Source: a virus (taxonomy: Duplodnaviria; Heunggongvirae; Uroviricota; Caudoviricetes). From it: a DNA stretch of 47,271 nucleotides. Location: the IMG/VR virus record IMGVR_UViG_2839594473_000016; one strand, 5' to 3'. Every line of letters begins with the position of its first letter. Positions within the stretch are counted from its first letter, which is position 1. Below, in pieces: positions 24,001 through 30,000 of this stretch. The position numbers were made by a program.

Positions 24001-27000
24001 GGACGCGGCAGAAAACGGGCGGTCGTAAGATTTAATGGTCCGGATGGTGCATTCCGCATTCGCGGGCACGGTGACGGCAGACACCTCCATCAGTTCCCAG
24101 CGCAGAAAATGCAGTCCGCCTCCGTCCAGAAAGGTGTATTCATGGGGACGGAAGCCCACGGACAGCCCCCTGACCAGCCCGGTCTTAATGGCCGCCCAGA
24201 CCTCATCCAGCCGGGCAGCCAGTTGCGACGGCATATCCGGTACGGGCTTCACCAGTGTTGCCGTGATTTCCAGCCCTTCGCTGACCCGGCGCACCGTACA
24301 CTGCCCCACCGGGCGGGAATGGTCATGCTGCCAGAGAAACGGGATCGCACTGCCAAACTCCGCGCCCTCCGGCTCCAGGATGTCACCATCCCGATCCGGA
24401 GAAGGCGTTGACGCAATCCCGGTGATCACCCGTTCATCCTCACTGAAGGATTTCACCGTCAGCAGGGAACAGGCCCGTTTAAGAGTCACATCAGCCTCCT
24501 GAAAATAAAAAAACCGCCGCAGCGGTTCATGATGGTTACAGTGTGAACAGGGTTATATGAAAAAAACCGCATATTCTTTCTTTTTCGGTTCCGGGTTAAG
24601 GGACATCAGGGAGACCGCATTGAACAGCGCCATCAGCGGGTCAATTTTTCCCCGTCCACTGGCCTGTTTGGTGATAAGAATGGCGTTACCTTTAGGCTCC
24701 ACCCGGGCATTGCCGACACACCAGGCCATCAGGGGCTGGTCACCATGCACCAGCACCCCTTCAGCCAGTTTGCGCTCGGTGGTTTTAATGGCCCCGCCCA
24801 GTTTCCAGCCCTGGCTTATCCCCACCACAATTCCGTCGGGGATCCCGGCTTCCGCCAGTGAATCCAGAATCTGCCCCACCCCTGACGGGTCAATACCGAT
24901 ATGGTCCAGTAACTCAGCCTCATGAATGCGACGCACATATTCCGCCACTTCCGCCGTGTCATCCCCGACACGCCGGACAATGGTCATATCTCCACAGGCA
25001 ACAAGATCCTGAAACCGGGACGCCTCGCTCTTCCGTCGGACCACCGCGGTTTCATGCGCCCAGGCATGGCCCCAGCCCAGCCATTCGCGGGTTTCCCTGT
25101 CACGGCCAATCACGTACATTCCCAGCAGATCATCCAGGCCCCCGCCGTCAATCCCCACCGTCACCACATCAGCGCGCTGCAGGATATCGTCCAGGCTGAC
25201 GCGCCTGCCCTGCTGCTCCCAGAAATCCGCACCCGCCCAGCGGTCAGAACGCAGGGCAAGACCAATTTCCACATTGGCATGTTTTGACATGAAGCCACGA
25301 AATGCTTCCTCACCAGCCTCCCGGGCTTTACGGTACTCCCGGTACAGAAAAGCCTCATCCACCGAATAACCGAGATTCGGGTTAACCATGGCGAGGTTTT
25401 CCATCAGCAGGTGAGCCCCGCTTTCCACCATTTCAGGAGGATGCTCAAAAATCACCGGCAGAAAGTGCGGATCATGAATTTTGCCGTCACGGACATCCCG
25501 GGCGTACTGCAGTTTCTGTCTGAACACCCCGGCTGGCGGCTCATTCGACTGGGTGGTCGTATACACCACAAACCCTTCCGGGCGGGAGGCAAGGCCGCCT
25601 ATGGCTTCACGTAACATGTCCTCCGCTTTGTACTGCTTGCCAAATAACCACAGTTCATCAATCAGCGTCCCCACGGACTTGATACCGGATACCGTATTCG
25701 GATCGGCAGCCACCACCTTCAGGGTGGTGTCCGTCACCCTGTGGGTGATGGTCCGGATATGTGTCTGCACCTGACAGAGGTCATCCAGATCATCGTCCCG
25801 TCGTACCATATCCCTGGCAGGGTTGAAGGCGTTAGCCGCCACCTCCACGGTCGGGGCCAGAATGGTGTAGCCCGCCGCCTGCCGCCAGTTCAGTAACAGC
25901 GCCGTCATCATGATCCCGGCAGCCAGCGTGGACTTGCTGTTTTTCTTGGGGATAAGGATAAAAACTTCCTTGATATGGCGTACACCGGTCTGCGCATCGT
26001 AGGAGCCAAACAGGGCCGCCACCAGGTCAAACACCCACTGTGCGCAGGACTCCCCGAACGTCGGGCTGCCCGGTGCATCCACAATCCGCAGTTGTTTAAA
26101 AATCGCCAGGGCATGTGCGGCCTGCTCCGGATAAATCGGAGCCGGAATAATCGACAGCCCCTTTTTCAGGCGCTCTGCCCAGTCCGGGCAGGCCGTGCTC
26201 CACACAGGTATCATCCGTTGCCCTCATTATCATTATTCACCACCAGGCGGGGTGGTGGTGGCACCGCAAAACGGTTAGCCGCTTTTTTCGCCGCGTCACC
26301 TTTTGCCGATTTTTTACCGGCATCCCCTTTTTTGTGGTGCGTGAACTGCGCCAGCTTATAAGCCGCATCCAGCGCCAGCCTGGGGTCGGTATTAATGTTC
26401 TCCACCAGAAGACGCCCCATCGCTTTCACCGGATCGGGAAGACCGTCCTCCATATACTCAATACCAGGAGATATCACCACGGGCGGTGGCATCTCCGGAT
26501 TTGTTTCGTCCGGCTGTGGTATTGCAGCCGCCTCACGGCGACGGGGTTTATCCTCCGGCTCTGATTTTTTCTGCCGATAAACAGGAACCTCATCCACCTC
26601 CACCGTCTCGCACTGTTTACGGGCTATAAACGCAAGCACCTCCGGATCTTTTGCCAGCTGCGAGCCTTTAACCCTGGCTGTCTTCGCCGAATAACCGGCG
26701 GCAAGGGCTGACGCTGTTTTGTTTTTCCCGGACATGAGCGCCAGCGCAAATTTTCGTTTTTGCGTTGTCAGCACAGCCTCCTCCCGGGTCCAGAACGCAC
26801 TCAGCCGGGTATGGTTCAGCCCATTTTTCCCGGCGTCTCATGCCGCAAATGTTAACTGCTGCCTGGTTAACATTTGCTGAAAAAGCCTGTTAACATTTTT
26901 TCCGCACAACAAACTGAATAATAAAGATAAAAACCGCAAAAATGCCCGGGCAGCCAGTTAACATGTTAACTGCCCTGAAACGGGAATTTTTTCTCTGCGT

Positions 27001-30000
27001 GAGAGGGGGCGCGGTGTCCAGGGCGATCGTTTTTTTTCGCCGGATGATCCCCCCCGGGTCTGGTCACAGGCCAGTGATTCCGTCGGCCCTGAGCGTGCCA
27101 TCAGGAAGCTCAGGCAACGTCGGATCAGGCATACCACTCGCCGCTTCACTCGCTGACTTCTGGCGATGGCATTCAGTACAGAGGGTCCAGAGGTTCGTCT
27201 CCTCATTACCACCACCGAACTGAAGTGCAATGCGGTGATCGAGTTCACTGTCACAAAGGTCAACCACGCGTCTACAGAGACAACAGTGTCCGGCATCCCT
27301 CCGCCAGATACGACGTTTGAGGGAAACCCGGGCACTGCCACTGACACGACGCTGTTCCCCCCTCAGGACATTTATCCGCCGGGTGTTCAGAGTTTTGATT
27401 CTGCCCGGTAACGTACGAAGCACAGCCATGTAAAATCCTCGCCATATAGCTTGTCACCAGAGGAAAGAAAATGTCATCGAAAAACCGGCCCCGCAGAACC
27501 ACAATCCGCAATATCCGTTTCCCCAATCACATGATTGAACAGATCAATATCGCCCTTGAACATAAAGGTTCCGGTAACTTTTCAGCGTGGGTTATTGAAG
27601 CCTGCAGAAGAAGGCTGTCAACAGAGCGTTCGGGTATGAATTACATAATTAAGTAACATGGTGTTCACAGAACACACAGTTACCGGACACATCAGTTTTC
27701 CATTCGTCCCCCGGCAGTACAGGCTTCCCGTCTGACGGGATAGCCTGAAAAAACACAGAAAATTATTTGTTATAATTAATATAACTTACTCAAAAAAAAG
27801 CGACGAGAAAATCAGCATCAACGAGCAATAAGCGCCAATACGTGATAACAAATGGCAGCCATATTTATCTGCAGTATAAGCAATGGACAGGATAACCACA
27901 CCAGAAACCGTCAGCATAAAATCCATTTGAACTTCCTCGGACAAAATCGACTCATCTAAAGATTTACAGCTCTTTTTATTATCAATATGTTAAAAGTAAA
28001 ATAAACAGATGTTCAATAATACGAATACAAAAACGTGCTGAAAATCAATGAATCCATTTCTGTGTTATCAATTAATAGTGATAAACATCCGGCTTCTTCC
28101 ACCATCGCACCGGACCAGCGACCATGAGGGGACAACGCCGCGCTCCGTTAACGCGGTAAACCCCGGTGTGTATCGTTTTTGATTATCCCCGCACACTCGC
28201 GCAGAGGATTCTCCCGGTCGGGCTGCGGTCTCTGTTAATGCAGGAATACGGCGACAATACCGCGCATGAATAATAAGGTCGCTCAACACACTGGCTGTAA
28301 TGCAGCGGATACCATGCGGCATTTAGCGGCATTCATCGTACACTCAACGGTTAGCTCTTCATTCGTGGCATTCACCTGAAAGGTCCTGGAGTGTAATTGC
28401 GTACATTTACCACTGAACGAACCTTCAACAAGAACACGACCACGCTGCAAAATACGGAACGGAATTGTTCCCTGAAAAGGCTTTACGGTTACCAATAATT
28501 TCTTCATGCATTCTCCGAATAACAAAAATACTAGTTAATACACTGAGTGCGGATATATTCCTGAAGCATTCTCAATGCTGCCTGGTCGCTGATGATTCCG
28601 TCTCTGATACCGAGAACGTTTCGTCCAGCAACCGGAGAGAGTTCGACGGCGGCATCATTGCCCACGCCGGAGGTGCCGGTGGCTTCACGCACGGTACCGG
28701 GGCAGGTGGCGTTGATCCGCAGGCGCTTACGACCAGCGGCAACATCAGCACGCAGAGTTTCATTTTCAGCTCTCGCATCGGCTAATTCCCTCGAGTATTT
28801 TGCATCGAGCGCAGCAACATCACGCTGGCGCACCTGCATGTCAGTAATGGTGGCATTCGCCTGTTCCAGCTCTCTGGCTTTTTTATCGCGCTGCGCTTTG
28901 TAGGTGAGCGCGTTGTCACGGTAATGGTTTGTTGCCAGCCACAGCGCACCACAGCCAACCGCCATGACAATAATCACCACACACAGAACACGGTTCATCT
29001 CTCTTTCACCCCACCAGTCCCGATAACGTCAGGACTCGCCAGGCGGTGGAAAAGAAAATGGCAACCAGCATGACTAAAAATGAAATGCCGACAAGTACAC
29101 AGAGGCTCTTCACCAGCGTTATGAGTTTATCTGATATCATTAGCCACCCCATCAATCCGCCTTTGTTATTTTCCCTTTGCCTGTATCAGCCAGGACAAAA
29201 TCAATCAGCATATTCGCTTCATTTACCAGCGTACGGATTTTTGATACATGCGCGGCTTTAACCTGTTTCCACTCATTCAGCCCGGTAGCAAACACACTGG
29301 CAATGTTTTTATCCCGTTTCATGTCAGCACAAGCCTGGTTGAGTTCTTCCATCACGCTCATTTTACGGGGATTAACGACAAAACCCTTCGTCCAGTACTC
29401 GTAAAGAACATCGTCGCACTCTTCCTGATACCGGATGACCTTATCGCGGATTTCGGGTTTTACTTTGTTGGGATTAATGGTTTGTAGCCAGCCGGCAAGT
29501 TTTCGAAGTGGCATGGACACCATATTGCGTTGTTTCCCATCCTCAGCAACCATAACGATTTCCGTTATAGTTGACGCAAAACGCTGTCTTAACTTAGCCA
29601 ACTGTGATTGCCAGGCCAGCCCCATCCCCGCAACGACAGGTTTCATGGGAACGTATGGTTCGCCATTATGGTTAACTACATAAAGAGAGTTGCCGTGAAA
29701 CGGCACGGCCATCATATTCATCGGTTATTTCCTTTTAGTGATGAACCTTGTCTCACAGGAATCCAGCCCACAGAAAGGCACCGACAGCCAAACCGGTATC
29801 CTCAAGGGTCATCCTGAAAGGTTCTGTGTTGTGAGATGCGCGTGAGATGCGCAGAAATGACAAAGGCATCATTACGGTGCCTGAGTGTTAAACAACTGTT
29901 TTGACTTTATTCACTTACATTTTGCCAATTTGCAGGATTTCGTGTTATCCGTCCATGTAAGCAAACCTCATTTTTCAGCAAAATATTCTGCTTATCTGTC

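Follow-up and report, generated by a model that had tools for sequence, protein, structure and literature searches.

Between the HNH endonuclease gene and terS, the small terminase gene, of a tailed-phage genome (IMG/VR record IMGVR_UViG_2839594473_000016) lies a 289-bp gap that holds five copies of a short motif, GTTAACAT. The whole stretch of DNA that we analyzed, 47,271 bp, is called the window here. The gap is the cohesive-end (cos) region of this phage. We consider it reasonably probable that it is the cos of an HK97-style module made up of the HNH endonuclease, the small terminase (TerS) and the large terminase (TerL), and that the five copies, whose aligned consensus is GTTAACAT[G/T]T, form a TerS array that positions TerL and the HNH protein. 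The repeats are probably the TerS recognition array; we infer the binding itself from their conservation and from their co-variation with the type of TerS.

A nonrandom cluster of inverted repeats

The 8-mer GTTAACAT occurs at 26849 (−), 26866 (+), 26889 (+), 26957 (+) and 26963 (−), i.e., five times across 26849–26970 (122 bp); the only other (sixth) copy in the window is at 37828. The copies at 26957 and 26963 make up a 14-bp palindrome, GTTAACATGTTAAC (26957–26970), which widens to a perfect 18-bp palindrome, CAGTTAACATGTTAACTG (26955..26972, both strands). A second inverted repeat, GCAAATGTTAAC-N9-GTTAACATTTGC (26845–26877, both strands), is made up of those at 26849(−) and 26866(+). Does such a cluster arise by chance? 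We looked on both strands for clusters of any 8-mer inside a 125-bp span, taking hits at least 6 nt apart. With five hits, GTTAACAT was the top cluster of the window; the maximum in 500 first-order Markov simulations was 2 or 3. The motif cluster is real and beyond chance. A first-pass annotation of this DNA had described five copies in both orientations within 125 bp, including a 14-bp perfect palindrome, and both the positions in the window and the simulations agree with that description. A full-text search of a literature library turned up no paper that contains the 14-mer palindrome.

The cut site and its distance from the repeats

The position of the cut is best approached through Lys8385Vzw (MT225100), a Shiga toxin 1 (Stx1) phage whose gap is 96–98% identical to that of the window and has the same five repeats. 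PhageTerm assigned this phage to the cos class, with cohesive 3′ ends and with CGCCCCCCCT as its cos sequence (PMC7946995). The MT225100 record begins at the base that matches window position 27003 and heads towards terS; its final letters are ...GGACACCGCCCCCCCT, and its last 10-mer, CGCCCCCCCT, matches window positions 27013..27004, where the window has CGCGCCCCCT, one base off. In the Burkholderia phage Bcep176, whose TerS is 37% identical, the 10-mer CGCACGTTCC is found at both ends of the record; on the terS-proximal end it directly precedes CTCACGCGCAG and so occupies the homologous position. The records of vB_EcoS_phi330 and Burkholderia vB_CB2a begin at arbitrary points and are uninformative on DNA ends. 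From the ends and PhageTerm class of Lys8385Vzw and the terminal 10-mer of Bcep176, cosN, the 10-nt 3′ cohesive-end sequence CGCGCCCCCT, is placed at 27004..27013 on the minus strand. The cuts at 27003/27004 and 27013/27014 were established in the relatives and are presumed to apply to this prophage.

With the cut fixed by the ends of Lys8385Vzw virion DNA and by the 10-mer at the termini of Bcep176, the repeats can be located between cosN and terS; they sit inside the end that is packaged first. The palindrome starts 33 bp past cosN in the direction of terS. Counted from the cut, the first bases of the GTTAAC hexamers are at +34 and +42 (the palindrome, copies 1 and 2), +110 (copy 3, 26889..26896, plus strand) and +133 and +148 (the second inverted repeat, copies 4 and 5); the array spans +34 to +155. 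The expectation that genome ends would map inside the HNH-terS interval was borne out by Lys8385Vzw. As for the proposal that the cluster is itself the packaging site, the region does hold cos, as the ends of the relatives attest, but the cut is made 33 bp from the cluster. The repeats are most likely the recognition part of the site, the cleavage part being 33 bp off.

The cut lies within a conserved cos core, CGATCGCCCTGGACACCG-[10-mer]-CTCACGCAGAGAAAAAATTCCC (26982..27029, minus strand), which is conserved in Enterobacterales phages with TerS proteins 33–48% identical and in the satellite islands described below, and which is recognizable in Burkholderia and Pseudomonas. Farther upstream, 36 nt from the cohesive-end sequence, is a G7-ATCA element (27045..27055, minus strand). 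All of the Enterobacterales, Pseudomonas and Burkholderia relatives examined have a G-run there, and the right end of HK97 (L155, 682–695) has G9-ATCA ~32 nt before its last 10 nt. The G-run/ATCA, whose position is cosQ-like, may be a conserved upstream cos element.

The cohesive 10-mer is polymorphic among close relatives (CGCGCCCCCT, CGCCCCCCCT, CGCCCCCCGT and rare forms one base shorter), and its flanks, GGACACCG and CTCA[C/T]G, do not vary. Two phages whose overhangs differ could not anneal end to end. In several O157 PPompW prophages (e.g., LC567822 and LC567832), homology to the gap stops inside the G-run, at about window position 27053, and the IS110-family element ISEc20 is annotated there; in these prophages, ISEc20 would part the upstream element and the HNH gene from cosN and terS.

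Conservation of the repeats in relatives

The region is 100% identical to Stx2a_WGPS6 and 92–99% identical to BP-4795, YYZ-2008, 2851, 1717 and many Stx1a, Stx2a and Stx2c prophages. The gap is present in 1277 of 5426 complete E. coli genomes, in up to seven copies per genome, with nothing annotated on it. We collected 71 distinct gap sequences from 89 relatives. Only one of the 38 motif columns varied, and that in one sequence only, vs. 78 of the 251 columns elsewhere in the gap (Fisher one-sided p = 3.5e-5) and 25 of the 103 columns within ±10 bp of the motifs (p = 0.0014); the columns are not phylogenetically independent, and these p-values are indicative only. The sole change (1/71 distinct relatives) is a single one in the palindrome; copy 3 and the 8-mers of copies 4 and 5 are invariant in all 71. 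The full set of five is retained at identical spacing in 67 of the 71. E. coli relatives whose TerS is 66–80% identical likewise keep all five, and the motif was thus found where the first-pass annotation would have it, in relatives with the same terminase.

How far beyond E. coli does this arrangement extend? A single-protein query gave no other Enterobacterales relatives; these were found by a contig profile search with alignment. Their TerS proteins are 33–48% identical, and their gap is short, with the core GTAAACATCGATCGCCCTGGACACCG-[10-mer]-CTCACGCACAGAAAAAATTCCCCTCTGGAGGGTGTAAAC-ATG-TTA-ACA. The terS start comes ~37 nt after the overhang and is overlapped by a quasi-palindrome, [G/A]T[A/T]AAC[A/G]TGTTAAC; terS begins at the palindrome position in 20 of the 21 short-gap loci. 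In position, the window palindrome is the homologue of this terS start (ATG TTA ACA, in the context GTAAAC-ATG-TTA-ACA). The E. coli lineage has ~190 extra bp (26956..26775), with three more copies of the motif, a new ribosome-binding site and a GTG start. A GTTAAC-type inverted repeat is found ~35 nt past the cut in Enterobacterales, Pseudomonas, Burkholderia and Janthinobacterium relatives; in the last three groups, GTTAA-N5-TTAAC surrounds the terS start, behind a recognizable core and G-run. The sharing of the motif is of two kinds: the palindrome is common to distant phages of the same TerS family, but the other three copies are confined to the E. coli lineage.

Codon 2 of terS is the rare Leu codon TTA in 20 of the 21 short-gap loci. 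In the window lineage, where the start is free of the site, it is CTG. The use of TTA in overlapped starts and of CTG in the window lineage suggests a constraint at the level of the DNA, beyond protein constraint alone.

Satellite islands with a different repeat

Two kinds of E. coli island (L150; L011/L163) encode a TerS 46–47% identical to that of the window, with KGWQL replacing KGSQL in the helix-turn-helix region. They retain the cut-site core (GGACACCGC..CCC..TCTCAT.C), which is followed by GTTACA(C) repeats in place of GTTAACAT. There are two copies of GTTACA(C) in L011/L163 and six within ~210 bp in L150, mostly direct. That the core is kept while the repeats change with TerS is as expected if TerS reads the repeats, and TerL and the HNH endonuclease read the core.

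The island terS is adjoined by neither terL nor an HNH gene (L011–L013, L158–L167, e.g., L163 1–6486; L150–L152). One kind of island is ~8 kb long, lies beside phoQ and has a D5_N/DUF5906 primase, small open reading frames (ORFs), cos, terS and a gene for a 307-aa capsid-like protein; the other has AlpA, terS and an autotransporter. IMG genomes 2693429662 and 2681813226 hold an island (L159 and L161) plus a phage-type terS (L149 and L073). Extra GTTACA copies are present inside the satellite terS coding region (L011 1659–1732 in terS 1501–1989; L150 2201–2237), where they encode a Val-Thr run, ..VTPDVTFQVTKPKKVTKKVTEKVTP..; here the DNA repeat appears to shape the protein linker, or vice versa.

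These islands may be satellites that redirect a helper's TerL and HNH endonuclease via their own TerS and repeat cassette. The satellite strategies on record are carriage of the helper cos, a TerS for pac sites, Rpp, or a full HNH-TerS-TerL set as in cf-PICIs (bioRxiv 10.1101/2022.09.08.507074). A wider proposal, which we put forward only tentatively and regard as somewhat unlikely, is that cos is modular in this phage family: a near-universal core read by TerL and HNH would be joined to an exchangeable cassette of TerS helix-turn-helix and array, a division exploited by satellites, and the ancestral TerS site would lie over the terS start codon, giving TerS autoregulation. If this were true, satellites would steer the helper's TerL and HNH endonuclease onto satellite DNA while encoding neither, and the ancestral overlap would add TerS control over its own translation or transcription.

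The small terminase and a model for its action

What kind of TerS would read these repeats? A search of the PDB with the TerS sequence returned only sub-threshold hits (E 0.3–0.7). An AlphaFold model built with 21 homologues has pLDDT values above 90 for residues 1–55 and is otherwise confident just in two helices (115–142). The modelled N-terminal domain superimposes on the DNA-binding domain of SF6 TerS (4zc3, target TM 0.82, rmsd 1.6 Å; 2cmp, 0.81); the match covers this domain only, the central and C-terminal parts being modelled with low confidence. By this fold and its Pfam family (Terminase_2), TerS is of the SF6/SPP1 G1P type, with a helix-turn-helix N-terminal DNA-binding domain. HK97 gp1 (TerS) and the HK97 HNH protein have no BLASTP similarity to the window proteins. 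The first-pass annotation had drawn on HK97-like phages, in which cos lies between the HNH gene and terS. The comparison is apt for the gene order of the module, its TerL family and the 10-nt 3′ ends of its relatives, but not for its TerS, which is of the SF6/SPP1 G1P type.

The following model accommodates these features. A TerS oligomer would contact the palindrome, and the three copies beyond it, through several of its helix-turn-helix domains. The spacer between copies 2 and 3 (26897..26945, both strands) is A/T-rich, with T-runs 8–10 bp apart and few variable columns; as read from the sequence, it is a possible intrinsic bend, and it could let the DNA bend or wrap around TerS. The TerS-DNA complex would then place TerL and the HNH endonuclease on the conserved cut site 33 bp away, where the terminase, aided by the HNH protein, would make staggered nicks that leave the 10-nt 3′ overhang at 27004–27013. 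Packaging would run from the cut end into terS, terL and the head genes. Binding, wrapping or bending, and positioning are all inferred steps.

Weighing the explanations

Several points weigh against a TerS array. The main caveat comes from SF6, the nearest relative with a structure that has been studied: on its own, the DNA-binding domain of its TerS had little preference in vitro for the pac repeats (PMC4737164); given this low preference, specific reading of an 8–10-mer by this fold is not established. In HK97, moreover, the TerS site is a single 15-bp element (+15 to +29) with no repeat array (PMC11331095). The spacings between hexamer centers (8, 68, 23 and 15 bp) are not multiples of the helical turn. 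In short-gap relatives, the palindrome overlaps a conserved Met-Leu-Thr start, such that coding and site constraints are confounded, and the shared phylogeny of the columns, mentioned above, tempers the conservation test. Finally, the position of the cut is based on one terminal-repeat record and one PhageTerm report with a coordinate error: the cos coordinates printed in PMC7946995 (50,977–50,953) run past the record length of 50,953.

Could the repeats instead be functionless now? The palindrome might be a relic of the ancestral terS start (ATG TTA ACA), the other copies having arisen by local duplication or with the ~190-bp insertion that displaced terS. The exact coincidence of terS starts with the palindrome position in 20 of 21 short-gap relatives would fit, as would the resemblance of copy 3 (ATGTTAACAGGC) to the ancestral start (ATGTTAACAGCG) and the absence of the three distal copies outside the E. 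coli lineage. However, the 8-mers are near-invariant vs. 31% variable columns elsewhere in the gap, their spacing is fixed in 67/71, the palindrome has been kept though it is no longer the terS start, and satellites have built an analogous array from another motif. A relic fits the origin of the repeats and does not fit their conservation; we consider it improbable. Slightly less probable again is an operator or promoter that serves another protein instead of TerS, such as a regulator of the host or of a phage, for example a plus-strand promoter from copies 4 and 3. Dimeric regulators typically use dyad-symmetric sites, and a consensus scan gave one hit, TTAACA-18-TAACAT (26867–26896, plus strand; 9/12 matches, with TG before the second hexamer), whose hexamers are both within motif copies. 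Yet one such hit is what shuffled sequences yield (mean 0.8), and transcription from it would be antisense to HNH across cos, with no plus-strand gene close by (DUF3950 begins ~575 nt away). The motif matches no known E. coli regulator site, the consensus of integration host factor (IHF), WATCARNNNNTTR, has no match in the HNH-terS gap or the spacer, and a regulator would leave unexplained why the motif changes with TerS in satellites.

The least probable of the alternatives, and a very unlikely one, places the function in the late mRNA, either as hairpins affecting stability or terS translation or as a translated 24-codon leader or membrane peptide from the palindrome ATG (26964). A 12-bp RNA stem could arise from copies 4 and 5, but the minus-strand RNA (27003..26775) does not fold with unusual stability (z = −1.54; 17 of 200 shuffles were as good), and hairpins would not account for the single copy 3 or for the mostly direct satellite repeats. 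We found no terminators in the gap on either strand. The peptide would be encoded by MLTGCPGIFAVFIFIIQFVVRKKC (26890–26964, minus strand), a hydrophobic 24-codon ORF that starts at the ancestral terS start position and stops in the TAA of copy 3. The ORF is open at 24 aa in 67 of the 71 distinct relatives and is preceded by what is left, in degenerate form, of the ancestral ribosome-binding site. Most changes in the ORF, though, are non-synonymous, four variants are shifted or truncated, and the conserved motifs themselves provide both its start and its stop. Given the non-synonymous changes and the frameshifts, we judged it a by-product of the conserved motifs and rejected it as a gene.

Genes around the gap

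The gap is non-coding in each annotated relative examined. Upstream of cos is the HNH endonuclease gene (27064..27429, minus strand; Pfam HNH, E 5e-6; PHROG 589, HNH endonuclease, E 1e-37), whose counterpart in relatives is annotated as HNH or DNase. Downstream is terS (26211..26774, minus strand), with matches to Pfam Terminase_2 (E 4.5e-8, residues 2–57) and PHROG 641 (E 2e-68), followed by terL (24553..26214, minus strand), of the HK97 TerL family (Pfam TerL_ATPase and TerL_nuclease; 23% identity to HK97 gp2, E 6e-11). With all three genes on the minus strand, the context matches the earlier placement of the cluster between HNH and terS in a packaging module. The terS gene has a GTG start, at +230 from the cut, and a ribosome-binding site, GGAGGAGG, at 26778–26785. 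In the Lys8385Vzw record, the annotated terS reaches 45 nt further, to a CTG start codon (MT225100.1 185–793 = window 26819..26211). The GTG at window position 26774 is favored as the start by the Pfam match, by the ribosome-binding site GGAGGAGG and by the homologues. Just upstream of HNH, amid the minus-strand late region, is a 61-aa DUF3950 gene on the plus strand (27471–27656; Pfam E 9e-20), which is kept in the relatives L007 and L009.

Implications

Many phages that convert their hosts to Stx1, Stx2a or Stx2c carry this module. The position of the cut and the probable array tell which terminase can package which prophages or satellites, and mobilization of cos-bearing DNA between co-resident O157 prophages could be explained in this way. 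They also give cos-plasmid transduction tools, or efforts to disable the spread of Stx phages, defined targets to work on. The natural pairs of TerS and repeat (GTTAACAT with KGSQL; GTTACAC with KGWQL) lend themselves to asking how an SF6-type helix-turn-helix ring gains sequence specificity.

Comparison with known packaging sites

A TerS-site array beside cosN is a known sort of element, as exemplified by lambda cosB and the SPP1 pac boxes; the sequence of this one is new. The cos of lambda consists of cosN and of cosB, with the sites R3, R2 and R1 for gpNu1. As in the window, the repeats of cosB are in both orientations and separate the nick site from the gene for the small terminase; they lie inside the first-packaged end, with an A/T-rich, bendable stretch between them. 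The proposed role is also the same, i.e., TerS is anchored so that TerL nicks the neighboring cosN. The two differ in that the overhangs of lambda are 5′ and 12 nt long, its TerS is of the Nu1 type, and it has an IHF site but no HNH partner, whereas the window has a 10-nt 3′ overhang (as in its relative), an adjacent HNH gene and a Terminase_2 TerS, with no IHF consensus in the gap.

The cos of Lys8385Vzw (PMC7946995) is the same element, with a 10-mer that differs at one base. Both the cos type and the 10-mer are thus already published for a near-identical phage; that report gives the 10-nt cohesive sequence and the packaging class and does not mention the repeat array. The discussion of cos in a paper on the O157 prophage pool is confined to the lambda-like cos of Sp4 and Sp14.

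HK97 (gp74 HNH, gp1 TerS, gp2 TerL) shares with the window the order HNH-cos-terS-terL, the 10-nt 3′ overhang, the TerL family and a G-run-ATCA 30–36 nt upstream of the overhang. In that phage, too, the cut has the TerS site downstream of it; cleavage there is stimulated by HNH (PMC11331095). The recognition differs: HK97 TerS reads its one 15-bp site via a central channel and an Arg clamp (PMC11331095), in contrast to the five-copy array at +34 to +155 and the helix-turn-helix-type TerS of the window.

SPP1 and SF6 have a TerS of the same family, with the same N-terminal DNA-binding fold, as the window. Short repeats named boxA, boxB and boxC are found around their cut site and terS start, bent pac DNA is protected by TerS, and a ring of helix-turn-helix domains is thought to select intrinsically bent DNA, which wraps round it (PMC4737164). 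These Bacillus phages are headful (pac) packagers without an HNH partner, whereas the closest relative of the window is typed as cos with 3′ ends; and the SF6 domain has little sequence specificity in vitro, whereas the 8-mers of the window are strictly conserved. In function, the array most likely corresponds to lambda cosB and to the pac boxes of SPP1.

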